The position numbers were made by a program, and so were the translations under genes. A stretch of DNA of 52,618 bases from a virus: the IMG/VR virus record IMGVR_UViG_3300009826_000007, positions 1 through 52,618 of that record; one strand, written 5' to 3'. Positions within the stretch are counted from its first letter, which is position 1; each line of letters starts with the position of its first letter. The notes below the pieces were generated by a model. That model was given only the letters and a program-made list of their open reading frames with translations, searched no databases and had not been told where the DNA came from. Positions 913 through 52,618 of this stretch are shown one piece after another.

Positions 913-1575
913 TTATTTTCCCCTGTTCCGTTTCTTGATGGTCAACTCGCGTTCGTTTAAAACAAACGACTTATTTTTACGCCTGTCATATTCTTTTGGC
1001 AAATTACGTGGGGAAACTGCTCTAAAATTTAGGGTAGAATTTGTTATAACTTTTAATTCGTCCGAATCGTACTCTCCGGTGTCGTCAATGCTGCGAACTA
1101 ATGTATGGCTACGCGTTTGCATGACAATTTTGTATACGTTTGGGTCTTTTCGAAAAACGATGATTCTTGCACCACTCGGGTGTACTCGCTCCCAGTCAGA
1201 AAACAACAAATCATATTGTGGATGTTTTAACGTGACAATCAAATTGCCATCGACTTCGATTTGCTGTACGCGTTGGTTGTTTGTCTTGCGCAATTTATTT
1301 CCCTTTTTGACTGCGTCAATTTTTAATGCGGCTGCTACGACCGATTCTAAATCGTTTAAATCGCTATTTGGGTCAATCCTGTTGATAATAAACCGTTCAA
1401 TCGCTTTCCAATTGAATTCATGGCCATTGTAAAAAATGTTGTCTGCATCTGGGGACTTTCCGATTGCGTACATTTGCCGTCTTTTGACATTAATTACCTC
1501 GCCCAATGATGTGAGTGTAGGCTTGCCCAAATCCTCGATAACCTCTAATAACCGGTAATTTGTAACTATGCTCAT
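913..1575 (-). CDS. First gene of the leftward early operon; hypothetical, possible N-terminal HTH
   Basis: 220-aa ORF with GAAAGGAGG upstream of the ATG. PTLTSLGEVINVKRRQMYAI resembles a helix-turn-helix. It sits directly downstream of the predicted promoter. Confidence 0.7.
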   Translation of the reverse strand: MSIVTNYRLLEVIEDLGKPTLTSLGEVINVKRRQMYAIGKSPDADNIFYNGHEFNWKAIERFIINRIDPNSDLNDLESVVAAALKIDAVKKGNKLRKTNNQRVQQIEVDGNLIVTLKHPQYDLLFSDWERVHPSGARIIVFRKDPNVYKIVMQTRSHTLVRSIDDTGEYDSDELKVITNSTLNFRAVSPRNLPKEYDRRKNKSFVLNERELTIKKRNRGK

Positions 1576-1614
1576 GTATTTATGCTACCTCCTTTCATAC
1601 ATATATACATACAT

Positions 1615-1643
1615 ATTATATCTGTGTGCTAAACACATGTAAA
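1615..1643 (-). promoter_or_regulatory. Sigma70-like promoter for the leftward operon
   Basis: The minus strand reads TTTACA-17 nt-TATAAT. The -35 is at 1643-1638 and the -10 at 1620-1615, about 40 nt upstream of ATG 1575. The spacer contains a TGTGT/ACACA dyad. Confidence 0.55.
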
Positions 1644-1746
1644 AATATGGAAATAGTTGGAGTCGATTAGAATCGTTTTCATCTGCCAAATCATGTCCGT
1701 CAAACGTAAAAGAAAATCCTTTAATGCCTAGCAAAAATGCGATTGA

Positions 1747-1813
1747 GTTAGTCATAGCTAACTCGAGTTAGTGCCAACTAACTTTGAAATGGTGACGGTT
1801 AGTCATGACTAAC
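1747..1813. promoter_or_regulatory. Three 16-bp operator-like inverted repeats GTTAGT-N4-ACTAAC
   Basis: Site sequences: 1747-1762 gttagtcatagctaac; 1767-1782 gttagtgccaactaac; 1798-1813 gttagtcatgactaac (perfect palindrome). Centre spacing is 20 and 31 bp. Confidence 0.6.
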
Positions 1814-2430
1814 TAGAATGGTAGTTAATGGTAAACGTGATGAAATGTATAAAAAGTATAGTTCCCTCTCATGATTATGCCATCCAGCTTTTTCCATGTG
1901 TTTGTTTGCCATATTTGACATATTGTACCATTTTATGCATTTGTTTACATTCTGATAACATGTTGATTATTTTTTGCTCACTTGTCTGTTGTACAGGCTA
2001 CTACATACACTATATACATATATACATGTGTATAGATATACATATATACTACCATATAACGTATGTAGTAGATATATGGTATATGTATAGTGATATATAC
2101 ACATATTAGTACTATATATACACACATATATATGTATATAATGTATGTATGTTTATAGCCGTGTACTGGAATTCTGGAACAAATTCACTCATGATTTACC
2201 GTGCCGAAATTCTATCACACAAAATCCGAAAAGTAAATTGCGTTGGTCAAACTCATTTTTGTCATGCTTGAAGGGTAAGTATAAGGGTATAGACATATAT
2301 GCATAAACGTATTAAGTTGTAGTTATAGGGTTTATAGGCATTTAAAGGGTGTAATGATACACATGTGATACTTGTGCAACATGAAAATCTTTTATAAATT
2401 TCCCATTTCGCACGAAAAAATTTGTCAGAC

Positions 2431-2497
2431 TATTCCATATATGGTTCGTATGTAAGGACATGACCCTCGTCTTTACATACGAACCTTATATGGAATA
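2431..2497. repeat. Long inverted repeat (about 25-27-bp arms, 13-nt loop)
   Basis: ttccatatatggttcgtatgtaagg pairs with ctttacatacgaaccttatatggaa. There is one mismatch and one G-T pair. Confidence 0.9.
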
Positions 2498-2580
2498 CAC
2501 CACAACATTTTTTGACAAAATATGGCATAATTTAGTAGATATGAGCCAAATATGTCATATTTTTCCATATATATGTGTAC

Positions 2581-2630
2581 CGCCCCCCGTCCTGCCGCCG
2601 CCGCCGGGCGCACACCTCCCCCATCCACTC
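2581..2630. other. Isolated GC-rich island in an AT-rich non-coding region
   Basis: cgccccccgtcctgccgccgccgccgggcgcacacctcccccatccactc has 41 of 50 G+C by my count. Confidence 0.85.
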
Positions 2631-2845
2631 AATCCATATATATAAATACCTCCCAAAAATTTCGGACATACAAAATAACATTCATGTATATATTTCACGA
2701 GTACCAAAAATATTTCGATATAATGATTGCTATTACATTTTCCATGATATACAATATATTGTAATTAACGGGCGCTATCTCCCATACATTGTACTAACGC
2801 CTGTTAATTTCTCTTTTGTGCGTATTTGGTGGAGTGCATTTGGTG

Positions 2846-2892
2846 AAAGGCAATGTACGCATGGCGTTGTGTACATTGCCTTTGACTTTTTC
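2846..2892 (+). terminator. Perfect 13-bp stem hairpin followed by a T-rich tract (intrinsic-terminator-like, plus orientation)
   Basis: aaaggcaatgtac (2846-2858) pairs with gtacattgccttt (2871-2883), followed by gactttttc. No annotated gene lies upstream. Confidence 0.4.
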
Positions 2893-3338
2893 GTCATAAA
2901 TTTCGAACGTACTTCTACATGCAAACATACATGTATGTCTGTACTCACATACAAGCATACATATATACATATATACATATATACAAGCATATATACATAC
3001 ACATCCATGTAAATACCCCAAGCTCATATATATTCCAAGCATATATTTATATATAGGCATGTCTACACGTAAAAAATACATTCCACAAATTTCGAACACA
3101 ATCAATCAGATATGTTGATATATATTTCGAGTATCAAAAATTTTTCGAGGAAAGATTGTATATATATTCCGGGTATCATATAATGGGGTTGGGTATTCAG
3201 GTATATGCTCAATCAGCCCTCACTGATTTTATATGTTTTATATGACAATTACGTTAGTTCGCCATAACTAATGTAATTGTTTAGGCACAGCCATTCTCCA
3301 AAGCTCAAAAACAAATATATTTCCACAATCCTACAATT

Positions 3339-3397
3339 TAGCGCATATTAAACTTTTTCGTTAAGCAATTCCGAAAACGCTTAATATGCGCTATTTT
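3339..3397 (+). terminator. Hairpin/attenuator-like structure just upstream of the first rightward ORF
   Basis: tagcgcatattaa (3339-3351) pairs with ttaatatgcgcta (3381-3393). There is an inner ttttcg/cgaaaa stem, then tttt. ATG 3424 lies 30 nt downstream. Confidence 0.4.
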
Positions 3398-3423
3398 GCT
3401 TGTAATTACGAAAGGGAACAAAA

Positions 3424-3702
3424 ATGTTTAAACCAACAGCAGATATAATAGGCATAATAATAGACAACAAGCATGTCGGTGAATTATTTTTTATGGAAAT
3501 TGTAAATTTAAAAGACAAATTTGGCGTAGTCATGCCTGAACATAAAATTGATGATAAAATATTGTTGGAAATACTAAAAGAACGTAAGACGGATTTACTT
3601 GTCAAGGTATTTGGTAGCTATTATCAAGCGCCAAAAGGTAAGCATCTTATCATGGCAGATTCAATGTCAGTTATGAATGAGCCTAGAGTTGTTATGTGTT
3701 AA
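3424..3702 (+). CDS. Hypothetical protein (92 aa)
   Basis: ORF with AAAGGGA upstream. It is the first gene of the rightward block. Confidence 0.6.
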   Translation: MFKPTADIIGIIIDNKHVGELFFMEIVNLKDKFGVVMPEHKIDDKILLEILKERKTDLLVKVFGSYYQAPKGKHLIMADSMSVMNEPRVVMC

Positions 3703-3710
3703 CAAAATAT

Positions 3711-3782
3711 TGGACTATCGCCAAACGGTAAGGCACTAGACTTTGACTCTAGTATTTGTTGGTTCGATTCCAACTAGTCCCG
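3711..3782 (+). tRNA. tRNA-Gln (anticodon UUG, 3743-3745), no encoded CCA
   Basis: - Hand-folded cloverleaf: acceptor TGGACTA/TAGTCCC with a 1:72 mismatch.
- D arm GCCA-AACGGTA-AGGC, as in E. coli tRNA-Gln.
- Anticodon arm CTAGA-CTTTGAC-TCTAG.
- T arm GTTGG-TTCGATT-CCAAC.
- Discriminator G. Confidence 0.88.
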
Positions 3783-3807
3783 TAAAAAAGATGAGTGAGG
3801 GGGAAAC

Positions 3808-4255: not shown

Positions 4256-4381
4256 ATGCAAAATTATTTTACAGTAAAAGATTTTAATAAAATGGAAGAG
4301 GAAAAAGAAGAGAAAATTAGGATTAAAAAGACCATTGAACAATATAACAAGGATAAAAAGTTAAAAAGGGGATTCTTTTAA
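4256..4381 (+). CDS. 41-aa K/E-rich protein, paralogous at its N-terminus to 4972..5235
   Basis: Translates as MQNYFTVKDFNKMEEEKEEKIRIKKTIEQYNKDKKLKRGFF. GAAAGG lies 7 nt upstream. It is below the track cutoff. Confidence 0.45.
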   Translation: MQNYFTVKDFNKMEEEKEEKIRIKKTIEQYNKDKKLKRGFF

Positions 4382-4399: not shown

Positions 4400-4972
4400 A
4401 TGGGAAATTGTATTATATGTGAACACGAAAAGCGTATTGATATAGAATCTGCTTTGCTAGCCGGTCAAACGGCAAGGAACGTAGCAAAATTTTATAATGT
4501 TGATGTGGCTGCGATTGAATCGCATTCTTCCATATGCTCAACATACGTTTTAGGCCTAGAAGAGTTTGACAACATTGTAATGAAAGAAATTTATGAGTTT
4601 AACGAAAGTCAAGGGTTGAGTAATGCAGCCGTAAAATTGCCAGGGAGCATACAACGGCAAATTGGGTTGCGTGAAGGCGATATGCTGGCTGCTGTTATGC
4701 AAGAACATTTGGTGACATTAAAGAATATGGGTAGGCAAATCAATCATTATATTAATAAGGCCAATACGCGGGAAGGGCTAACTGACCAACAAAAGTTTTT
4801 GCGTAAACCTATTATGGATGCCTATGTGCTGGTAAGTTCCGAAATGCGGCAAACGGCTAAAACAATGGCAGACATTGAAAAAATGCTACATGCACCGGAA
4901 CCTGAAAGCCCTGTCAGCGGATTGTACGCATTAACGAATGCGATAGCGATTTCCAAGAAAAATGTGGGTTGA
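4400..4972 (+). CDS. terS: Terminase small subunit (putative)
   Basis: 190 aa, positioned just before terL. The N-terminus has a Cys pair plus an HTH-like LLAGQTARNVAKFYNVDVAAIESH. Confidence 0.65.
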   Translation: MGNCIICEHEKRIDIESALLAGQTARNVAKFYNVDVAAIESHSSICSTYVLGLEEFDNIVMKEIYEFNESQGLSNAAVKLPGSIQRQIGLREGDMLAAVMQEHLVTLKNMGRQINHYINKANTREGLTDQQKFLRKPIMDAYVLVSSEMRQTAKTMADIEKMLHAPEPESPVSGLYALTNAIAISKKNVG

Positions 4973-5235
4973 TGAGGATGCAAAATTATTACACAATCAA
5001 AGATTTTGAAAAAAATGAGAGCAATAGGCGGGAAGTAGACGAAATTGCAAAACAAGTGCAGTTTTTGACGATTGAAGTTGAAAAATTAAAAAAGATAATA
5101 AGACAAAAACAAAATTATGAAATGGGAATTTTAAAAAGCGAGTTGGACGTAATGCATAAAATAGATCAAATAACTCCTCCCCATTTTTCTTGTTCTCCTC
5201 CTCGCCCGTTGGTGACACATGATAGATTTTGCTAA
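4972..5235 (+). CDS. Small coiled-coil protein between terS and terL
   Basis: Track ORF 4969..5235. MQNYYTIKDFEKN mirrors the MQNYFTVKDFNK of 4256..4381. The start is ambiguous (4969, 4972 or 4978). It overlaps the terL start by 17 nt. Confidence 0.5.
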   Translation: MRMQNYYTIKDFEKNESNRREVDEIAKQVQFLTIEVEKLKKIIRQKQNYEMGILKSELDVMHKIDQITPPHFSCSPPRPLVTHDRFC

Positions 5236-6529
5236 CGGCAAATTTTCGCCCAAAGCATTAGATTTTATTGAAAACTCCACCGCCCGACTGTGTATTTTAC
5301 ATGGTTCTGTGCGTTCGTCTAAAACCGTCAATTGTACTGTCCGCTGGTTGATATATATCGCCAGTGGGCCTCCTGGCGATTTAGTGATAATGGGCAAAGA
5401 CAGGGGATCAATATGGCGGAATGTCCTCAATGACATGTTAGAAATAGTTGGTAAGAAAAGTTATAAATGGGTTGACCGAATGCGTGGGGAGCTAACCATT
5501 TTTGACCGTAGAGTTTGGGTCATAGGTGCCTCTACGGTCGAAGCGGAAGAAAGACTTAGGGGCGCGACATTTGCAGGCGCGTATTGCGACGAGGCCAACA
5601 CATACCCGGAATTAGTTTGGAATCAACTTCTTGCACGGCTAAGCGTTAAAGGGGCGCAAGTATTTGCCAACTGCAATCCAGATACACCTTATCACTGGTT
5701 TTATTGCGGGCCATTAACGTCCAAGGAAATTACTAACCGGCAAATATGGCATTTTACAATGGACGATAATCCAAATCTTGATCCTGAATATAAATCAAAT
5801 TTGATCGCGGAATTCAAAGGATCGCCTGTATTTTATCGCCGATTTGTATTGGGTGAATGGATTGTCGCAGAAGGGTCAATATATCAGGTGTTTAGTGACA
5901 ACGAGGACGATTATTATAATGTTCAATGGAACAAGGAATCAAGAAAATTAGAATTTCTTGATCCTAAAACTGGCTCAATCAAGGAAAAACGAATAGCACA
6001 TATAAATATTGGGGTTGACTGGGGGCAAAATAATTCTGCACATGCATTTGTTGCTACAGCGCTAACAGAAAATTATGAAGACCTTGTCGCCTTGCGCTCT
6101 CGTAGGCACAAAGCGACAGGCACTACACCAAACGATGTATTGGAATGGTTTATTGATTTTGCGGACGGGATAACGGCTGATTTCGGTAGGGTACGAGCGG
6201 TCTACTGCGATAGTGCAGAACAAATTTTAATTAATATGCTACGCCAAAACACTAATTATTCTATTCGTAATGCCCTAAAATATCCGATTGTTGACCGAAT
6301 ACGCGCAACAGTTGCATTAATGGGACAGCGTAGATTCCACATGCTTGACGATACCCTTGATCTCCAAGGCTTTTTCCGTGCCGCACGATATAAGGAAAAT
6401 TCTCACACAGACGAGCGATTGGATGACGGTAGCTATGACCAAGATACAGGGGATGCGTTCGAATACACGTTCGAGCGATATATGAGATATTTAATAGATG
6501 GCAGGGATGCGGATGTCGTTCATAACTAG
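5219..6529 (+). CDS. terL: Terminase large subunit
   Basis: 436 aa with a Walker A-like LHGSVRSSKT, a YCDEAN Walker B-like motif and a C-terminal nuclease-sized domain. The portal gene follows. Confidence 0.9.
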   Translation: MIDFANGKFSPKALDFIENSTARLCILHGSVRSSKTVNCTVRWLIYIASGPPGDLVIMGKDRGSIWRNVLNDMLEIVGKKSYKWVDRMRGELTIFDRRVWVIGASTVEAEERLRGATFAGAYCDEANTYPELVWNQLLARLSVKGAQVFANCNPDTPYHWFYCGPLTSKEITNRQIWHFTMDDNPNLDPEYKSNLIAEFKGSPVFYRRFVLGEWIVAEGSIYQVFSDNEDDYYNVQWNKESRKLEFLDPKTGSIKEKRIAHINIGVDWGQNNSAHAFVATALTENYEDLVALRSRRHKATGTTPNDVLEWFIDFADGITADFGRVRAVYCDSAEQILINMLRQNTNYSIRNALKYPIVDRIRATVALMGQRRFHMLDDTLDLQGFFRAARYKENSHTDERLDDGSYDQDTGDAFEYTFERYMRYLIDGRDADVVHN

Positions 6530-32750: not shown

Positions 32751-32996
32751 TTATGAAGTTTGGTCGGCCAATCGTTTTGCGCGTCCATATTCGAATTCTG
32801 GACAATTTTGCACTGTAAAAGATTCGATAGAATAATGTTTAATATGCGCCCCATATCCCAATGTAACATTTATTGGGGCGTATATTGCTGTCCATCCATC
32901 TACTGGCCTAAAATATCTGTGCCAGTCGCAGCCCAACGCGTGAGCATTTGCGCATTCCCAACAAATTGTTAATATTTTCCCTGGTTTCCCTGCCAT
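32751..32996 (-). CDS. Cys-rich small protein (81 aa)
   Basis: ICWECANAHALGC...QNCPEF. It is the last gene of the leftward array. Confidence 0.55.
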   Translation of the reverse strand: MAGKPGKILTICWECANAHALGCDWHRYFRPVDGWTAIYAPINVTLGYGAHIKHYSIESFTVQNCPEFEYGRAKRLADQTS

Positions 32997-33471: not shown

Positions 33472-34581
33472 TCAGAAATTCACAACACGCTGTATAAACT
33501 TTTCCATTTTGATCCCGGATTCTTTTTGCATTCGTTCCGTCACATGCCCATAGGTATCCAATGTAAACGCCACAGAATGATGTCCCAAGCTTTCCGCAAT
33601 TGTTTTTATGTCTACCCCAGCTTGTATGGCAGAAACGGCATAACTATGGCGTAAATCATGGAAGCGCATAGAGGAATAGCCAATTTTCTCAACTATTTTT
33701 TTAAAATTTCGTTGTACAGTAACAGGCGTGAAGTGTTTGCCGTTTTTGTCTGTAAACACAAAACCCTCTTGTCTGATTCCCAAAACACTAAGTTTTTTTA
33801 TAACATAAGGAGCCATTGTTACCCACCTTGATTTGCCACTTTTCGGCAAAATCAGCTTATAATTAGCGCCTTTTTCAATAGGTTTTTGTAACTGTTTACT
33901 AATATTTATACGCCCATCCGAAAAATTTATACAATTCCACGTTAGCCCCAAAACTTCTCCTAAGCGCATACCAGTAAATAATGTCACAACAAAAAGAGTT
34001 TCAAGTTGGTGGCCCTCTATTTCATTTAAAAATGTAAAAATTTGAGTGTCGTCTAAAAACTGCATTTCTTTTTTTGTATTTTTTGGCAAAACACAAGCGT
34101 CTGTCGGGTTTGTTCTGATATACCCAATATTAACCGCCTGGCCTAATGATTTGCCTAATACCGAATGGACAAGTTTTACTGACCTATCTGACAAACCCTT
34201 TTCGCGCAAATTATTATAAAATTGCTGTATCATGCCGGGGGTAAGAAGCGCAAGCCTGACAGCGCCTAAAACTGGTATAATATGATTGCGGCAATTATTT
34301 TCGTAAATGCGAGCGGTAGCGGGTTTTACTGACACGATATAATCTTTTATCCACATATTAATCCATGCCCCAATGGTTAATTTTGACGGGCTAATAAATG
34401 TTCCATCGTCAATCGAAGCTATAATCTGTGTCAACTTTTGACGAACCTCTTTTTGTGTCTTGCCATAAATGGATTTTTGGATTTGTTTACCTGTTCCCGG
34501 GTCGCGTCCTACAGTGTAGCGAGCTTCCCAGTTTCCGTTTTTTCGTTGGCGTATGCTTCCCGCGCCCTGCATATTACGCAT
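33472..34581 (-). CDS. int: Tyrosine recombinase / phage integrase
   Basis: The arm-binding-like N-terminus reads GSIRQRKNGNWEARYTVGRDPGTGKQ. Catalytic residues are in GMRLGEVLGL, HDLRHSYAV, GHHSVAFTLDTYGHV. The likely start is ATG 34581 (track start 34626). Confidence 0.92.
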   Translation of the reverse strand: MRNMQGAGSIRQRKNGNWEARYTVGRDPGTGKQIQKSIYGKTQKEVRQKLTQIIASIDDGTFISPSKLTIGAWINMWIKDYIVSVKPATARIYENNCRNHIIPVLGAVRLALLTPGMIQQFYNNLREKGLSDRSVKLVHSVLGKSLGQAVNIGYIRTNPTDACVLPKNTKKEMQFLDDTQIFTFLNEIEGHQLETLFVVTLFTGMRLGEVLGLTWNCINFSDGRINISKQLQKPIEKGANYKLILPKSGKSRWVTMAPYVIKKLSVLGIRQEGFVFTDKNGKHFTPVTVQRNFKKIVEKIGYSSMRFHDLRHSYAVSAIQAGVDIKTIAESLGHHSVAFTLDTYGHVTERMQKESGIKMEKFIQRVVNF

Positions 34582-34834
34582 TATTATCATTCTCCATTGC
34601 AATTTTATCCATAACAACCGCAACATCTAAAATTACATCATCAAACGGGCGTATTACCCCATTGTCATCATACAACCTAACCCCGATTCTGTTTACGGCG
34701 GTTTTTATTTTTTCAGTTGCGCTTGAACCGTCAATAAAAGCCCAATCTATGTCTTTGTTTTCAAATTCTTTTTCTAAATCAACACATCTGTCCACCAAAT
34801 GTTTTCTAAAATTAGTAATATCATCATGTGTCAT
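34574..34834 (-). CDS. Hypothetical acidic protein (86 aa)
   Basis: ORF immediately upstream of int. Confidence 0.5.
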   Translation of the reverse strand: MTHDDITNFRKHLVDRCVDLEKEFENKDIDWAFIDGSSATEKIKTAVNRIGVRLYDDNGVIRPFDDVILDVAVVMDKIAMENDNNA

Positions 34835-34889
34835 TTTAGTCGGTTATACATTTCTAATTTTTTCCTAGTCATTGTTTAATCTCCTTTTT

Positions 34890-35573
34890 TTAAAAAGCAT
34901 CAAATAAACTACGCATCTTTTCCGTTTTTTGCGTGTCCGTTTCGGTATCCCTTTCGGTGTCCTTTTCGGTGTCCTTTTTGGTGTCCATTATGGTTCCCTC
35001 TTTTGTACCTATTTCGGCACCCATTTGCGTTCCCATTTTGGCATCCTCTTTGATACCCATTTTGGTATCCGTTTTGGCAAGTTGTTGCATTTGTTGCGCT
35101 ATTTGGGGCGTTTTTTCAACAAAATCCCGTTTGGTATCATTTACGGTGTCCATTTTGGTTCCCTTTTCGGTATCCATTTGAGTATCTTTTTTGGTGCCCG
35201 TTATGGTATCTGTTTTAGTTCCCTTTTCGGTGTCCGTTATGATACCATTTTTAGTATCCATTTCAATGCCCATTTGCGACTGATTTACAGCCGCAAATGA
35301 GTTAATTGTGTAAACAGTGGATTGACTTCCCTTACGCGTTTCATATTCAATCAGACCCAACGCCTGCAATTCATTCCTGGCAACCCAGATTACCTTTCTG
35401 CTAAGGCTGGTCTTAGATTCAAGCACGGAAAGCCTTAGTTCAAAAGTGCATTGCCCACGTTTGTATGCGAAAAGTGCTAACGTATGCCATAAATTGATAG
35501 ATGAATGACGTACAGACCGCGCTTCCCTAAAATTGTCAAACGCTAATGTCTCAAAAATAAGATCATAATCCAT
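34890..35573 (-). CDS. Winged-helix-like N-domain plus a D/T/K tetrapeptide-repeat tail (candidate ParM adaptor)
   Basis: The N-terminus is SLSRKVIWVARNELQALGLIEYETRKG. The tail is DTEKGTKTDTITGTKKDTQMDTEKGTKMDT...DTEKDTERDTETDT. It lies directly downstream of the parM-like gene. Confidence 0.65.
   Translation of the reverse strand: MDYDLIFETLAFDNFREARSVRHSSINLWHTLALFAYKRGQCTFELRLSVLESKTSLSRKVIWVARNELQALGLIEYETRKGSQSTVYTINSFAAVNQSQMGIEMDTKNGIITDTEKGTKTDTITGTKKDTQMDTEKGTKMDTVNDTKRDFVEKTPQIAQQMQQLAKTDTKMGIKEDAKMGTQMGAEIGTKEGTIMDTKKDTEKDTERDTETDTQKTEKMRSLFDAF
34933..35285. repeat. 12-bp periodic tandem repeats (consensus GTRTCCnTTTYG), two blocks
   Basis: Twelve consecutive units span 34933-35076, for example gtgtccgtttcg, gtatccctttcg, gtgtccttttcg. 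A second block spans about 35133-35285. All three plus-strand frames are open here. Confidence 0.85.
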
Positions 35574-35581
35574 AACTATTC

Positions 35582-36574
35582 CTATGCCTTTTTGCTCATC
35601 TGGTTGTATGCCGCCAAATAACCCTTTGCGTTAGCAAAAATATCATCCTCAAAATATGCATCACCTATCATTCCGGTGTCTAAAATATATTTTTTTAATG
35701 CTATTGCACCACCGCCAACAAAAATTGTATAATCTTCGCGTAAGTCAATACCCTGTTGAGATACCGCTGCTAGTAGCTTCACGGTTAATTTTTGTGTGAG
35801 ATCAAAAACAAGTGCCTGTCGCTCGTTTGAGCAGCCATTTAGGGATTTGGCCTTTTTCTGAATAATGCCCTCAATGTTGCTATCCGTCATTCTTTTCCCT
35901 ATTTTTGCGTTAATTCGGCTGTTTACCTCGTCCAACAATATATTAACGCCAATGTACAGGGATTCCACTATGTCTGGTTGTCCGTTATTAATTCGTATGC
36001 AATCCACAGTGTAACCGCCTATGTCTACAATGTTTACAGTGTCACGACTGTCAACAATAGCCCATAGGTGGTTTAATGCTGTTGTGGCAACGCCCTGGGG
36101 ATAGACATGCACGTTGGTGATTTTTATAATCATGGGTGTATCGTTAATACGAAAACTAATTTGCTTGCCTTCACGTTGGAAATATTTTGCAAATTTTGCG
36201 CCGATTTCCTTTTTGTGCATTGGCGGTACCCCAACCAACAAATCAATTTCAACATATCCATCCTGCACCATTTCCTTATAACAATTCAAATCGGCTAAAA
36301 CTTGCTTCCCGATGGCAAACAATGTCAACAAAAAATAATCATCATCGGCGGTCTTGTCATCTTTTTGGTAAAATCGGCAGTCTACTAACGTGTATTCTTT
36401 GCCATTAAAATCTAATCTATCGCCGCCATGACTGCCCTGGATGGTGCTATCAATAAAACTGGATGCAAAATTAATACAAATCAATTTGCCTTTTTCCCCG
36501 GGCAAGCTGGTTGACAATGCGCTACACGACTTTGTGCCTCTATTGCCGTGGTCTATTGCTACTATTTTTTTCAT
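35582..36574 (-). CDS. ParM/Alp-family actin-like segregation ATPase
   Basis: Actin-fold motifs are AIDHGNRGTK (phosphate 1), VDIGGYTVD (phosphate 2) and FVGGGA (adenosine). Confidence 0.8.
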   Translation of the reverse strand: MKKIVAIDHGNRGTKSCSALSTSLPGEKGKLICINFASSFIDSTIQGSHGGDRLDFNGKEYTLVDCRFYQKDDKTADDDYFLLTLFAIGKQVLADLNCYKEMVQDGYVEIDLLVGVPPMHKKEIGAKFAKYFQREGKQISFRINDTPMIIKITNVHVYPQGVATTALNHLWAIVDSRDTVNIVDIGGYTVDCIRINNGQPDIVESLYIGVNILLDEVNSRINAKIGKRMTDSNIEGIIQKKAKSLNGCSNERQALVFDLTQKLTVKLLAAVSQQGIDLREDYTIFVGGGAIALKKYILDTGMIGDAYFEDDIFANAKGYLAAYNQMSKKA

Positions 36575-37136: not shown

Positions 37137-37835
37137 CTATTTGGCTGATTCCCCGTAAAGTTCATTTGCTAGTTTGATGTACAAAAAATATTCGTCAATA
37201 TATTTTTCTGCATTAGCCTCTTTTGCTATAGCTTTATAAGATTTTAACCATTCTTCAAGTGTGTGAATTTGACATCCAATTTTCAACTTGTTTCTGGATA
37301 CCATACATACAGACATCCTTGAGCCTTGAATATACAAGGGGGAAGTTCTCCATATGTCCTTATTCACCCACGCCGAGCCGGTTACATACGTCGAGTCGCA
37401 TATACGCGCCGAGCCGAATACACGCGCTGAACCGGATATACGCGCCAAGTCGGATACACGCGCCAAGTCGGATACACGCGCCGAACCGAATACACGCGCC
37501 GAACCGAATACACGCGCCGAACCGAATACATGCGCCAAACCGGATACACGCGCCGAACCGGATACACGTGCAAAGTCGGATACATGTGCCAAGTCGGATA
37601 CATGTGCCGAGTCGGATACACACGCCGATTTGGTTGCAACCGCTAAATTGGATACAACCCCATCATCAGCAACCCATGCTTTATCTAACAAATTGTATTC
37701 GGATTCAATCCAACCGCCAATATCTCCGGCACTAATCGTAAAAGCCCCATTTTCAAATGAATTTACGCATCTAATGCGCTGCACTAGTCTCCCATTTACT
37801 TCTTTAGTTTCGCCCGTAAACTCCCATTTTTTCAT
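37137..37835 (-). CDS. Beta-helix (hexapeptide-repeat) protein, paralog 1
   Basis: The N-domain is MKKWEFTGETKEVNGRLVQRIRCVNSFEN...GDIGGWIESEYNL. About 15 hexapeptides follow (GSARVF, GSARVS, DLARVS...). The C-domain is unique (PLYIQGSRMSV...IGCQIHTLEEW). Confidence 0.8.
   Translation of the reverse strand: MKKWEFTGETKEVNGRLVQRIRCVNSFENGAFTISAGDIGGWIESEYNLLDKAWVADDGVVSNLAVATKSACVSDSAHVSDLAHVSDFARVSGSARVSGLAHVFGSARVFGSARVFGSARVSDLARVSDLARISGSARVFGSARICDSTYVTGSAWVNKDIWRTSPLYIQGSRMSVCMVSRNKLKIGCQIHTLEEWLKSYKAIAKEANAEKYIDEYFLYIKLANELYGESAK
37369..37638. repeat. About 15 tandem 18-bp repeats (cgcgccgaaccgaataca-type) encoding the hexapeptide beta-helix
   Basis: Units were read off at 18-bp steps from 37369. 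Three consecutive units are identical (37477-37530). Confidence 0.9.
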
Positions 37836-39758: not shown

Positions 39759-40071
39759 TGAGACGCTCTATTTTGCGTTTTAAACCTCGTCTAACTTGCT
39801 TAACGTGATTTCCATACAAATAAACTCGGAAGCGCTGGAAAGCCCTTTTATTCGCGTCTGATAGCACAAACAAATTTATGTAGTCAATTCGATTCTCTTA
39901 TTGCCCTATGGCTCTGTGACCCTTTCTAAACTTTTCGGGATGCTATCACGCATATAGCGCTGAAACACATTTATTTACGTTTTAAACCATGTTAAACACG
40001 TTAGACGTAATTTTGCACACAAAATATTAGGGACGCTCAAACCCCCCCTTTATTCGCATCTGGAGGCATAT

Positions 40072-40220
40072 GTGCAGCGCCTGGTTTGGACACGCTGCAA
40101 CTGTTCTAATGTTTCGCGATGTCGTTCAACATCCATTGACACCATTGTATACCATAAATAAAATGGTGTCAAGCGTTTTTTTTAAAAAAATTAACTTTTT
40201 TTGCTGGAAATTTTTTGAAG
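40072..40220 (-). promoter_or_regulatory. Repeat cassette copy 1 (palindromic promoter/operator plus leader hairpin)
   Basis: - The core 40118-40202 is identical to the other two copies.
- Inverted repeat ttgacaccatt (40136-40146) / aatggtgtcaa (40162-40172).
- Minus strand TTGACA-17-TACAAT; plus strand TTGACA-17-TAAAAT.
- GC hairpin gcagcg...cgctgc. Confidence 0.7.
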
Positions 40221-40227
40221 GATTTTT

Positions 40228-42978: not shown

Positions 42979-43857
42979 TTATCCAAAACAATATTGTGTT
43001 GCGCCCCACGATTCCATCAAATAATTATTAACATCGCCAAATGTGTATTCGGCTGGATTAAAAATACAAACATCGCCATTTTCGCAGAAACTAAGTATCA
43101 CATCGATGTCGTCATCACTGCCACCATATTGGTGAATTAATTTAATTAAATTTTTCTTGTATTTCATTCGCGTTACAAAGTACAAGTAATCCATTTTGTA
43201 TCCTGTTAATGTTTCGCATTGCTTCGCGTCATAACCTGTTAATGCTTCGACTGCAAAATGCTTTCGGATTTCACGCAATGACATATTTGCAAAATACTCG
43301 TCTTTGATTATATAACATTTTGATTTTTGCGCGGGTTCAGCGCCCAGAGATGTTTCCGGCGTATCATCATCATCGGACACCCGCATATTACCGCACACCT
43401 GCATGTTTCCGCATATTTCCGCATGGCCGAACACCACGCCATTATTACACACCACTGCATTACCATATACCTGTGAATCCCCGTACACCTGCGAATCCCC
43501 GTACACCTGCGAATCCCCGTACACCATTGAATTATTACGTACCACCGCATTATCGAAAACCCACGCATAATCGAAAACCTGCGAACAATCGCGTACCTGC
43601 GCATCACCGCACACCCACGAATCACCGCGTATCCACGCATCACCGGACGCTATCGCGTTATCGAACACACACGCATCACCGGACACCCACGCATTTTCAA
43701 TTAAATTGTCCTCAGACTCGATCCAACCGCCTATTTCCCCGGTATCAACAGTTACATTTTTATTTTCAAATGAATTTACGCATATAATGCGCTGCAATGT
43801 TCTGCCATCTAATTTTTTTGTTTCGCCCGTGAATTCCCAATTTTTCATTTTCGCCAT
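42979..43857 (-). CDS. Beta-helix (hexapeptide-repeat) protein, paralog 2
   Basis: The real start is MAKMKNWEFTGETKKLDGRTLQRIICVNSFEN, after AAAAGGAG. The track ORF runs upstream through the promoter cassette. Hexapeptides include VYGDSQ x3. Confidence 0.8.
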   Translation of the reverse strand: MAKMKNWEFTGETKKLDGRTLQRIICVNSFENKNVTVDTGEIGGWIESEDNLIENAWVSGDACVFDNAIASGDAWIRGDSWVCGDAQVRDCSQVFDYAWVFDNAVVRNNSMVYGDSQVYGDSQVYGDSQVYGNAVVCNNGVVFGHAEICGNMQVCGNMRVSDDDDTPETSLGAEPAQKSKCYIIKDEYFANMSLREIRKHFAVEALTGYDAKQCETLTGYKMDYLYFVTRMKYKKNLIKLIHQYGGSDDDIDVILSFCENGDVCIFNPAEYTFGDVNNYLMESWGATQYCFG

Positions 43858-43888
43858 TTTATTTTCTCCTTTTCTCATCCTTATGTGT

Positions 43889-44025
43889 GGTGCAGCGCTA
43901 GGTTTGACACGCTGCACCTGTTCGCGATGTCGTTCAACATCCATTGACACCATTGTATACCATAAATAAAATGGTGTCAAGCGTTTTTTTTAAAAAAATT
44001 AACTTTTTTTGCTGGAAATTTTTTG
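43889..44025 (-). promoter_or_regulatory. Repeat cassette copy 2
   Basis: The core 43926-44010 is identical to the other copies. The inverted repeat is at 43944-43954 / 43970-43980. It lies 32 nt upstream of ATG 43857. Confidence 0.75.
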
Positions 44026-44035
44026 CTGGTTTGTT

Positions 44036-45025
44036 TTAATATTGCCCAATAATCCCATTTGCTTTTAATGCTGCGAAAATTCGGACTAAGGAACCCTTGA
44101 AGCCTATAACATCGTCCGGGTCATGCTCGCCTGTTAACCTTTTTGTTTCGCGTAACTCGTCCCGGATTTCTTTGGCGATGTCTAATTCGAACCGCACGCC
44201 CCGGAATATATCTTCTTTGAGTTTTTGTATTGCCTGTTCACAGTTTATTTCCGTCATTTTGATGTGCATTTTTGCGCCCTCGCGAATGTTGGCTATTTCT
44301 TCGTCTTTGGCAGATAATTCTGCTTCAAATTTTTTGTTGTTGGCTACAATTTCCGCATTGCGATCTATTCTATTTGTATCGTGTAGACGGCTGATTCTAT
44401 TACTTATTTCGGTTCTGCGATCCATCGTCTCTTTAATTCGCGCATTTTCTGCCTTCAACTCACGGATTTCGGCCTCTTGGCGCTCGATCAATCCCTCACA
44501 TCCAATGATTTCGGGTGCAGGCGTGTTATCATTTAATTGTCTAACGCCATTTTTATATATTGTGAGTTCAACTGGTTTTTTCGATTGCATGGTTTTGTCT
44601 GGCAAAAATTTGTATTGAATCCATTTGTCGTTGCCACCAATTTCACAATTGCCGCCTGCTGTATTAATCACCGACGCGTTGCCGGTTATTTTAGAATCCC
44701 AAATTTCCGATTCGTGGACAGCTGCAGAATTGTCAACAGTTGTGTTGATTATTGATGTATTTTTTGCAATAAATGCACAACCGTAAACCATAGAATCGCT
44801 ATCCAACCACGCGTTATATCGCAAATTGGCATCAATTTGAATCCAACCGCCCATTTCCCCGGTTTTAACAATCACGTTTTTATTTTCAAATGATTTTATG
44901 CAATGTATTTGTCGCAATCTTATTTTTGCCAGCCCCCCTGTAATTTTACAGGGGATTGACACTATTTTTGTTTCGCCCGTATAATCCCAGGTTATTCCTC
45001 TGTTTGATTTTTGCATTTTCGCCAT
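44036..45025 (-). CDS. Beta-helix N-domain protein, paralog 3, with a C-terminal coiled coil
   Basis: MAKMQKSNRGITWDYTGETK...IHCIKSFENKNVIVKTGEMGGWIQ, followed by a long charged helical region. Confidence 0.75.
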   Translation of the reverse strand: MAKMQKSNRGITWDYTGETKIVSIPCKITGGLAKIRLRQIHCIKSFENKNVIVKTGEMGGWIQIDANLRYNAWLDSDSMVYGCAFIAKNTSIINTTVDNSAAVHESEIWDSKITGNASVINTAGGNCEIGGNDKWIQYKFLPDKTMQSKKPVELTIYKNGVRQLNDNTPAPEIIGCEGLIERQEAEIRELKAENARIKETMDRRTEISNRISRLHDTNRIDRNAEIVANNKKFEAELSAKDEEIANIREGAKMHIKMTEINCEQAIQKLKEDIFRGVRFELDIAKEIRDELRETKRLTGEHDPDDVIGFKGSLVRIFAALKANGIIGQY

Positions 45026-51176: not shown

Positions 51177-52618
51177 CTAAAATAATATTTTTAACAGCCG
51201 TGTAACATTGCCGTGTGATTTAACGATAACGCTTTCCCGTTTCGTGGACGAGAATCCCAATCCCGAAAGCTGATTTTTATTATATGGTACTGTCATTTTG
51301 CCGCCTAATATCTCAAAAACTTTTCTATGTTCGTTTAATTCTTCGATTAAAAATTCGTTAAAAAACCCGCGTGTTTCCTTTGGATTTCGGCAACCCGCCA
51401 TCATAAATAAAAAATGTTTGTTTCCGACAGCAGAACCCGGCCAATAATTGGGCGATAAACACATCAAATTTACCCGTTGCATGGTCTGTGTGTGAATATT
51501 CCACACTTTTCGGACTGACTCACCGGACGGTATGAAAGATTCCAGTATTTGGAAACCCCCCGCCTTATCCAATTCAATTTTACAAACGGGTACGAATTCG
51601 CCATGTTTGACAGGTTTTTCGTATTTGAAATTATGAATTTTCCCACACAATTCCAGTTCGACTTCGAATCCTGTGTCATCGGCGGAACGCGAGCGCTTGC
51701 TAAAATTGTTTACTACCAGCGTGTAAATGCCTTTTTTCATGCTCTTGACATTTTGATAAAAAATATTTTCCACAGCATCATTAACGAATGGGTCGTGGGC
51801 ATTCATATCAACATCCAATTGCCCGCCATATGGTGATTTTTTTGCGCCATAATATATCCGAAATTTATTTGGTTCAATCAAATGTAAATCCAAATCATTG
51901 TAATTATGCCATGACAAACTGGCACGAAAATCACCCGTCACATTTCCACCTGCCGCCTTCACACGCTGTTTAATTGAATCTGTGGCATCCCCGTTATATG
52001 TCCACGTGAAATTGTTTGACCATTTAAACAAATGGCGCTGTGGGGCATCCTCGCGTGTTTCGGGGGCAATCAGCGAGACTAGGTTAGGAATGTGTTTACT
52101 CTCAAACAAAATTTCTAATTCGGTCGTATGCGGTAAAACATCCCGGACAAACCTGTCAATTTTGATTTCTGTCGGTTGTGTTCCGCCCGCGATATATTTC
52201 TTGGGTTTTGTAGGCGCGAGACCGTCAAATCCGTTATTTTGCGCCTTTATTTGTGTGGAACGGTCAACAAATAACATGTTATTGACTGAAATATCATCCA
52301 TACGCGCATGACGGCGCGTCAACATGGCGGTCAACCCCAATTCCTCGCATTTAGATTTTGCGGAATCAATCATCGACTGTGTAATTAACGCCGTGGGTCG
52401 TTTGTAATTTTCCGGTGCAACCATTTTTTCGTATTTGCGGACGGCTATTTCTAATTCTTCCCCGCCGCTCAAATCCAAAAGCAATGCACCGATAACACTG
52501 TTCTTTATGCGCAAAACGGATTCGGGTGTGTTTCCAACGTGAATCCATGCATCGTGGGAATAGTCGAAATGAGTGAGGTAGGTTAATAACATATTTTTAA
52601 ATTCTATGCCGCGATACA
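51177..52618 (-). CDS. 3' part of the junction-spanning 677-aa ORF
   Basis: The frame stays open upstream of the track Met (52592) to the window end. Contains LSWHNYNDLDLHLIEP...GGQLDVDMN, which resembles a YfaP/DUF2135-type beta-sandwich as I recall it. Confidence 0.8.
   Translation of the reverse strand, partial: YRGIEFKNMLLTYLTHFDYSHDAWIHVGNTPESVLRIKNSVIGALLLDLSGGEELEIAVRKYEKMVAPENYKRPTALITQSMIDSAKSKCEELGLTAMLTRRHARMDDISVNNMLFVDRSTQIKAQNNGFDGLAPTKPKKYIAGGTQPTEIKIDRFVRDVLPHTTELEILFESKHIPNLVSLIAPETREDAPQRHLFKWSNNFTWTYNGDATDSIKQRVKAAGGNVTGDFRASLSWHNYNDLDLHLIEPNKFRIYYGAKKSPYGGQLDVDMNAHDPFVNDAVENIFYQNVKSMKKGIYTLVVNNFSKRSRSADDTGFEVELELCGKIHNFKYEKPVKHGEFVPVCKIELDKAGGFQILESFIPSGESVRKVWNIHTQTMQRVNLMCLSPNYWPGSAVGNKHFLFMMAGCRNPKETRGFFNEFLIEELNEHRKVFEILGGKMTVPYNKNQLSGLGFSSTKRESVIVKSHGNVTRLLKILF
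52496..52618. repeat. Second copy of the 123-bp terminal overlap
   Basis: Identical to 1-123. Confidence 0.97.

Follow-up and report, generated by a model that had tools for sequence, protein, structure and literature searches.

A large coding-free region between the divergent gene blocks of an uncultivated phage, probably a composite cis-acting control region

The viral genome recorded in IMG/VR as IMGVR_UViG_3300009826_000007, which was analysed over its whole length of 52,618 nucleotides (nt) and is referred to here as the window, is densely packed with genes except at positions 1576-3423, and the question raised by this locus is what such a long gap may do. The two ends of the window are identical over 123 bp (1-123 = 52496-52618), which indicates a closed circular assembly with a unit of 52,495 bp and an arbitrary break. 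Long open reading frames (ORFs) are arranged in two blocks, one on the plus strand from 3424 to approximately 32.7 kb, containing packaging, head, tail, and lysis genes, and one on the minus strand from approximately 33.0 kb round through the coordinate origin to 1575. The gap is thus located exactly at the point from which the two blocks diverge. An earlier note, made from the sequence alone, had placed it at this divergence point and directly upstream of the tRNA and terminase genes; the divergence point is confirmed, whereas a 92-amino-acid (aa) ORF precedes the tRNA. Here, we propose that 1576-3423 is probably a central, composite control region acting in cis, and neither a gene nor one single element. 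In addition to its divergent location, the region holds three operators resembling the DicA operator Oc, two paralogous rightward promoter modules with hairpins, the most easily melted DNA of the genome, and a GC-rich box that is found in relatives (Table 1). It is unusually large, and each of its components is of a known kind.

Coding potential was scored by codon usage, with 33 long genes as the training set. By this filter, coding-like ORFs cover 0.90 of the window, and 1576-3423 (1848 bp) is the largest stretch devoid of them, the runner-up being 602 bp. Each of the 30 ORFs of at least 25 aa within 1500-3500 falls short of the 0.114 per codon scored by the weakest training gene; a Shine-Dalgarno-like match of even 4 nt precedes just three of these, and a proper ribosome-binding site (RBS) none. 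The longest ORFs of the region have no match in Pfam or PHROG, the proteins that neighbour the corresponding gaps of relatives leave no tblastn trace in it, and megablast and blastn searches of 50,697 phage records with the region returned no match. The region is non-coding, and the ORF-free status claimed for it in the earlier note was borne out.

Three palindromes, GTTAGTCATAGCTAAC, GTTAGTGCCAACTAAC, and GTTAGTCATGACTAAC, lie within 67 bp of the region (1747-1813), comprising two exact GTTAGT-N4-ACTAAC sites and one with a single mismatch, and no other copy is present in the genome. The third fills the space between the hexamers of a weak promoter-like site facing rightward, GTGACG-16-TAGAAT (1792-1819, 9/12), and the triad is located 100-190 bp upstream of the strongest predicted leftward promoter. 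In the cryptic Qin (Kim) prophage of Escherichia coli, the DicA operator Oc, TTGTTAGTCATAACTAACAA, is a 20-bp inverted repeat over the -10 element of the dicC promoter, and in vivo binding of DicA to it is lost upon a single base change (PMC3441716). We checked the E. coli K-12 sequence directly and located Oc in the dicC-dicA gap. Judged by their half-sites and spacing, which are the same as in this proven operator, the palindromes of the window belong to the DicA-Oc class, and their operator-like appearance in the earlier note has thereby acquired a concrete counterpart. As with Oc, they are situated between divergently transcribed units, and one of them overlaps a promoter-like element. They differ from it in number (three sites compared to one proven site in Qin), in their distance from the best early promoter, and in lacking a DicA-like or DicC-like protein in the window according to tblastn, phmmer, and Pfam scans. 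Considering that the genome has approximately 40% GC and that the nearest isolated relatives of its large terminase, TerL, are phages of Firmicutes, the host is probably not an enterobacterium.

The same palindrome appears to be widespread. IMG/VR was scanned for two GTTAGT-N4-ACTAAC sites 2-30 bp apart, a pattern with 24 specified bases and an estimated chance expectation of approximately 0.01, and at least 120 contigs were found to carry the pair. Among the matches listed, the operator-bearing contigs range from 28 to 61% GC, their sites occur in clusters of 2-12 with a spacing of 20-50 bp, the extended consensus is A-GTTAGT-N4-ACTAAC-T without fixed flanking promoter boxes, and clusters are often positioned at a junction beside terminase genes. 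A group of 37 high-GC loci has its cluster approximately 240 bp upstream of terS and TerL, at a junction of the type seen in the window. BLASTP clustering revealed no neighbour protein shared across operator-bearing contigs, and Pfam and PHROG scans of 142 ORFs that neighbour operators in other contigs yielded no common family; when all window ORFs were compared with the operator-bearing loci by tblastn, only TerL and a methyltransferase matched. The palindrome is absent from the closest relatives of the window, which is to be expected of an exchangeable immunity specificity. By its position, the product of the first early gene (913-1575) may be guessed to be a candidate reader of the palindrome. 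It is conceivable, albeit rather unlikely in our view, that GTTAGT-N4-ACTAAC serves as a control site across phage lineages and that the regulator family reading it is not recognisably DicA- or XRE-like; if this were true, the region of the window would be one case of a widespread and undescribed switch coupling early transcription with the promoter region of the packaging genes.

Larger arrays of the palindrome were observed in other IMG/VR contigs, including 12 copies in L127 (9399-9923), seven copies at an exact 40-bp period in L119 (15-270), 10 copies directly upstream of the TerL gene in L153 (10029-10326), and sites at 68-210 and 3087-3206 in L141, and numerous copies are scattered over several contigs exceeding 100 kb. 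In size, such arrays are more reminiscent of centromere or iteron arrays than of simple operators. For the palindromes of the window, a centromere role of the actin type seems unlikely, since such sites normally adjoin the operon of the actin-like protein (ALP).

On the rightward side of the triad, two stretches of approximately 115 bp (2644-2761 and 3074-3185) form a direct repeat whose alignment score is 97, compared to 50 +/- 6.5 (maximum 69) for shuffled sequences, and which exists in two copies only in the genome. The earlier note had reported an imperfect repeat of roughly 100 bp, which is real; what it had missed is that the repeat, as its alignment reads, is a duplicated rightward promoter module. 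In copy 1, three TTTCGR boxes are located at approximately -70, -34, and -15 from the -35 hexamer of promoter P1, and copy 2, with promoter P2, also has three at similar distances. In addition, five of the 20 forward-strand copies of ATTTCGR in the genome fall within a stretch of 470 bp (2659-3124). An assignment of the TTTCGR motifs to Spo0A boxes was considered and dropped, as they do not fit TGNCGAA.

The four strong hairpins that had been described all stand out against shuffled sequences, with a folding energy of -45.4 kcal/mol and a z-score of -11.7 for 2410-2520 and z-scores of -6.8 for 2840-2895, -4.7 for 3238-3290, and -6.3 for 3330-3402; the predicted P1 transcript as a whole folds with -46.7 kcal/mol (z -4.7). 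Two hairpins had also been taken for plus-strand terminators with no gene upstream. This holds for 2846-2883, which together with its T run is the sole site of the region that meets the terminator rule, whereas 3339-3393 has a U-rich tail yet folds better on the minus strand, and 3245-3280 has no T run. The latter hairpin is made of operator half-sites at a wider spacing (GTTAGT-N8-ACTAAT). A G-T pair, corresponding to a C-A mismatch on the other strand, is present in three of the stems, including both stems of the P1 RNA, and mildly favours a plus-strand RNA. The large palindrome at 2415-2513 has no copy in IMG/VR; its interpretation as a telomere-resolution site was rejected, as its centre is not palindromic and the recombinase of the genome is an ordinary integrase. 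In phage lambda, late control involves the promoter PR', a short terminated 6S RNA, the terminator tR', and read-through mediated by Q. The window bears a likeness to this arrangement in having a constitutive-looking promoter, a predicted short terminated non-coding transcript, and hairpins before the packaging/structural genes, which is a functional analogy only, and it differs in that a Q-like gene or qut-like site was not identified in it.

Seven relatives were obtained by TerL searches (L044, L004/L078, L005, L073, L075, L077, and L080), with TerL identities of 66-79%. An ORF-poor gap of 0.6-2.1 kb separates the leftward block from terS in six of them, the seventh (L080) being a short contig in which only 1.2 kb upstream of terS are visible, and the long gap is therefore a feature of the whole clade, which the earlier note had also missed. 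In L005, the gene to the left of the gap is a homologue of the 220-aa gene that flanks the gap in the window. The gaps of the relatives share no similarity above chance with the window or with one another in BLASTN and blastn-short comparisons, and each has its own repeats. The L005 gap has a 27-bp perfect direct repeat (5462-5488 and 5703-5729, 241 bp apart), and the L044 gap a 29-bp perfect inverted repeat (4343-4371 and 4556-4584) bracketing a small leftward gene; both are probably lineage-specific operator/promoter duplications analogous to P1 and P2.

The feature common to most relatives, present once per locus and on the terS strand, is a stretch of high GC content that contains a C-rich box (CCCCTYTCG-like), followed approximately 40 bp on by CATCCAC[TC]AA or a variant thereof. 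In the window, the corresponding island has the 82% GC that had been reported (2579-2628), with a 40-nt maximum of 88%. It lies 140-290 bp upstream of terS in L078, L044, L073, and L075 and approximately 550 bp upstream in L080, whereas it is weak in L005 (40-nt GC maximum of 57%) and has no clear counterpart in L077. A scan of IMG/VR with the box pattern recovered L004 only, plus three chance matches in coding sequence. RNAalifold found no pairs and no consensus RNA structure for the box, which therefore probably acts as DNA. In L078, L044, L073, and L075, a sigma-70-like promoter is found approximately 60-120 bp downstream of the box, and in the window P1 lies 105 bp downstream of it; because of this shared spacing, the unit of GC box and P1 appears to be the ancestral arrangement. 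What lies between the P1 terminator and terS, with the second TA/CA tract, P2, the 92-aa ORF, the tRNA, and the WDGH gene, is missing from the relatives and resembles a later insertion that came with a duplication of the promoter module. A GC content of 75% or more over 40 nt is reached at only one other site of the genome (42908-42955), a GC-rich hairpin between early genes that is preceded by an A run and followed by a T run and is probably a bidirectional terminator.

The TATACA/TGTATA-type tracts of the earlier note are likewise a peculiarity of this region. CATATATA occurs 11 times in it versus twice in the other 50.6 kb (both strands), and of the 21 runs of alternating purines and pyrimidines that reach 12 nt or more, 11 are located there, among them the six longest (up to 31 nt). 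Duplex stability within the genome is lowest at 1957-2156, whether windows of 60, 100, or 200 bp are used (z 3.4-3.6), and the second least stable 100-bp window is 2956-3055.

Table 1. Features of the coding-free region and of the first rightward genes
Feature	Position	Strand	Basis or remarks
Whole coding-free gap	1576-3423		Between leftward early/replication block and rightward packaging/structural block; codon-usage gap scan, ORF/RBS survey
Leftward leader	Alternating tract 1596-1616, then RBS AAAGGAGG, then ATG at 1575	minus	Sequence reading
Best leftward sigma-A/sigma-70-like promoter, TTTACA-17-TATAAT, 11/12	1615-1643	minus	Promoter scan; consensus match only
Operator triad, GTTAGT-N4-ACTAAC, 16 bp each	1747-1762, 1767-1782, 1798-1813		Palindrome and promoter scans, match to E. 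coli Oc
AT-rich, alternating purine/pyrimidine, internally palindromic tract	1998-2157		Contains inverted repeats I2 and I3 and two alternating runs (24 and 28 nt); candidate DNA-unwinding element
Large inverted repeat, 45-nt arms, 9-nt centre	2415-2513		Outward TTGACA-like hexamers at outer ends
GC island ending in box CATCCACT	2579-2632	plus	Candidate pac or late-promoter upstream element
Promoter module copy 1, P1 = TTGCTA-17-TACAAT (2727-2755)	2644-2761	plus	Copy alignment, promoter scan
Predicted P1 transcript, approximately 130 nt, without ORF or RBS	2762-2892	plus	12-bp hairpin 2763-2809; terminator hairpin 2846-2883, then T run
Second alternating purine/pyrimidine tract	2947-3062	plus	Direct repeats CAAGCATAYATAT (2952, 2984, 3036); 8-bp unit ATACATAT x3.6
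Promoter module copy 2, P2 = TTGTAT-17-TATAAT (3156-3184)	3074-3185	plus	Copy alignment
Leader of first rightward gene, approximately 230 nt	3191-3423	plus	Hairpins 3245-3280 and 3339-3393 (then TATTTTG), RBS, ATG at 3424; z -4.9
92-aa ORF	3424-3702	plus	First in plus block
tRNA-Gln(UUG)	3710-3783	plus	After 92-aa ORF
WDGH-domain protein gene		plus	After tRNA
terS-like gene	4400-4972	plus	After WDGH gene
TerL gene	5219-6529	plus	After terS-like gene

Taken as a control region, these elements might work together as follows. A dimeric regulator would bind the operator triad and thereby set the transcription of the leftward early block and of the weak rightward promoter, in the manner of an immunity-type switch. 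P1 and P2, as activator-type promoters with three TTTCGR boxes upstream of each, would drive the rightward packaging/structural block. The terminator hairpins would limit read-through, such that P1 would yield a non-coding RNA of approximately 130 nt and transcription from P2 would have to pass two hairpins before reaching the first late gene. P2 and the cassette of the 92-aa ORF, tRNA-Gln, and WDGH gene may have been inserted later between the ancestral GC box/P1 unit and terS, and the AT-rich tract and GC box probably serve DNA transactions, namely origin unwinding and recognition by the terminase in headful packaging. Beyond control, such a region might plausibly also function as an origin and as pac.

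Several observations weigh against this proposal. Sub-elements other than the GC box, which is kept in most relatives, are not conserved, and their function therefore cannot draw support from conservation, which the earlier note had named as a point that would weaken its case. The operator triad is too far from the strongest leftward promoter to occlude it. Neither tblastn nor phmmer detected a credible homologue of DicA or DicC in the window, and no XRE-type helix-turn-helix (HTH) domain (HTH_3-type Pfam) is present among the approximately 60 window ORFs scanned, in line with the missing canonical cI/cro pair that had been remarked upon. ORF scans of the genome recognised no late activator or antiterminator gene. 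Promoter-like sites are no more frequent in the region than expected from shuffling (19 versus 19.7), and P2 falls below the threshold of the promoter scan, its register having been read from the sequence and alignment. Finally, the GC box of the window is separated from terS by 1.8 kb and three genes.

Other explanations of the region differ mainly in which of its components they put first. It may be mainly a replication origin, in which one or both of the AT-rich alternating tracts would be the unwinding element and the direct repeats would be initiator sites; this is compatible with a control region, and we regard it as possible but somewhat doubtful. That the two weakest 100-bp duplexes of the genome lie here supports the DNA-unwinding element (DUE) suggested in the earlier note, and the CAAGCATAYATAT direct repeats and ATACATAT units would fit initiator sites, whereas none of the 21 matches to the DnaA box (TTATCCACA) with at most one mismatch falls in 1576-3423, the z-score of the stability minimum is only 3.5 versus 3.1 at the next site, and the tracts are specific to this phage and not found in its relatives. 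The DnaD-like, DnaC-like, and MCM-like replication genes are 12-20 kb distant, and a 469-bp gap just downstream of the DnaC-like gene (39759-40227), with a 15-bp hairpin (40136-40172) and T/A runs, is an alternative origin candidate. Among known phages, the longest intergenic regions of SPP1 contain transcription signals and oriR, its origins consisting of direct repeats together with an AT-rich DUE (PMC6316719), and ceduoviruses (c2, bIL67, and 923 types) have a promoter-flanked, non-coding ori region without RBSs between divergent early and late blocks, the ori types being dissimilar in sequence (PMC7150918). The window matches this latter layout in its divergent blocks, its promoter-flanked non-coding gap without RBSs, and the high sequence diversity between relatives. 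It differs in that its phage is temperate or plasmid-like (integrase, actin-like protein) and that its region also holds operators and a GC box, an origin role being only a candidate here. The non-coding gap of c2 measures a few hundred bp, and that of the window is much longer. Transcription flanking the tracts, from P1 or as an operator-controlled rightward transcript from approximately 1826, might activate or prime initiation as in the Lactococcus c2-type phages, a refinement that we likewise hold only tentatively. A packaging role was also among the earlier proposals, of which cos is unlikely (TerL is not of a cos type, and the assembly is circular with an arbitrary break) and pac fits better. 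TerL matches Terminase_6N and Terminase_3 in Pfam, its nearest isolates include phages annotated as PBSX-family, and the relatives encode SPP1-type portals (SPP1_portal); from these family assignments, headful packaging from a pac site appears more likely than packaging from cos. As pac of SPP1 coincides in part with the late promoters and the beginning of terS (PMC6316719), the GC box is a reasonable pac candidate. We would nevertheless give less than an even chance, and clearly so, to the island and its CATCCACT box, with bendable flanks, being a pac-type initiation site recognised by TerS for a headful start. Its presence in most relatives as a single copy upstream of terS and on the same strand, its ending in CATCCAC[TC]AA in L078, L075, and L080 with variant boxes in L044, L073, and L005, its probable action at the DNA level, and the conservation across the same phages of an N-terminal zinc-ribbon/HTH-like segment in TerS all speak for it. 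The distance to terS in the window does not, nor does the alignment of the box, which is short and weak (mean column identity of 50%), and an upstream activator site of the late promoter would explain the position equally well. No contig of the clade ends at the box, which circular or permuted assemblies would not do anyway. The likeness to SPP1 extends to the headful-type families of TerL in this phage and of the portal in its relatives; there is no sequence similarity between SPP1 and the region, the GC-rich box has no described SPP1 counterpart, and the box of the window is 1.8 kb from terS.

It is less likely still, and on the whole improbable, that one or several small RNAs acting in trans are encoded here, such as the P1 RNA of approximately 130 nt, which would regulate phage or host genes while the repeats are incidental. 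This would fit the make-up of the P1 unit, with its promoter, two stable hairpins, and T-run terminator and without an ORF or RBS, and its G-T pairs favour the plus strand. This non-coding RNA proposal of the earlier note has nonetheless been weakened, as a search of Rfam 15 at the gathering score recovered the tRNA only, a relaxed search (E up to 10) added only low-complexity noise from miRNA models on the TA/CA tracts, and the GC box lacks a consensus RNA fold. No homologue was found in the relatives or in the phage collection, and the P1 RNA is complementary to other parts of the genome over no more than 11 nt; for the P1 RNA and P2 leader together, complementarity reaches at most 13 nt, which is consistent with chance, and a GCGCATATTAA match at 32839 is not enriched. 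Very unlikely, finally, is that real small genes or a recoded ORF are concealed in the region, that decayed genes persist there, or that it is a largely neutral expansion of simple sequence without function. Three minus-strand ORFs in 1585-1961 do have mildly positive codon scores (0.08-0.11), and the tracts, with their 8-bp units, resemble microsatellite-type expansions and are not conserved. Set against this are the lack of an RBS, family match, or tblastn trace, the good performance of the standard code across the remaining genome, whose sole tRNA is an ordinary tRNA-Gln(UUG), and the operators, duplicated promoter module, and clade-wide gap, which speak against pure junk.

The surroundings of this probable control region were also surveyed. 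The minus-strand block encodes a tyrosine integrase, an actin-like segregation protein, DnaD-like and DnaC-like loaders, an MCM-like P-loop protein, a Sak4-like annealase, a methyltransferase, and a resolvase. The integrase gene (33472-34626) adjoins those for a DnaD/HTH_36-like protein (34890-35573) and an ALP/ParM-type actin-like protein (35582-36574), and this set of genes at 33472-36574 suggests plasmid-prophage maintenance or actin-driven DNA positioning. The product of 913-1575 (220 aa) has only 58 relatives among 1.8 billion representative proteins, and a word-indexed search with it returned only the protein itself. Its AlphaFold model, which is a confident one (predicted local distance difference test score, pLDDT, of 89.9), comprises an N-terminal three-helix unit and a small C-terminal beta domain, and a fold search of the PDB gave no significant match. 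Homologues at three distant loci (L001-L003) lie inside gene blocks and are uninformative for the gap. A minus-strand gene starting at approximately 714 continues into 51177-52592 and encodes approximately 677 aa that match phrog_1735 (unknown function), and three paralogous genes of the early block (37137-37835, 42979-43980, and 44036-45025) belong to phrog_5070/phrog_7964, families of unknown function. On the rightward side, two small ORFs (4256-4381 and 4978-5235) with the near-identical starts MQNYFTVKDFNK and MQNYYTIKDFEK bracket the terS-like gene and are possibly paralogues. The tRNA-Gln(UUG) gene is also present at the distant locus L003 (9348-9421) and is absent from the closest relatives of the window.

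Uncultivated phage genomes are usually annotated gene by gene, and cis-acting DNA is thereby ignored, whereas the region described here offers a compact and testable map of a probable decision site. Its points of interest are a DicA-type operator class that lacks a recognisable reader and is evidently common among uncultivated phages, a GC box that is conserved in the clade and is a good packaging-signal candidate, and a duplicated late-promoter module that records the insertion of a gene cassette. If the operator class is as widespread as the scan of IMG/VR suggests, it may be used to locate immunity and control regions in metagenomic phages and to fish for the protein that reads it.

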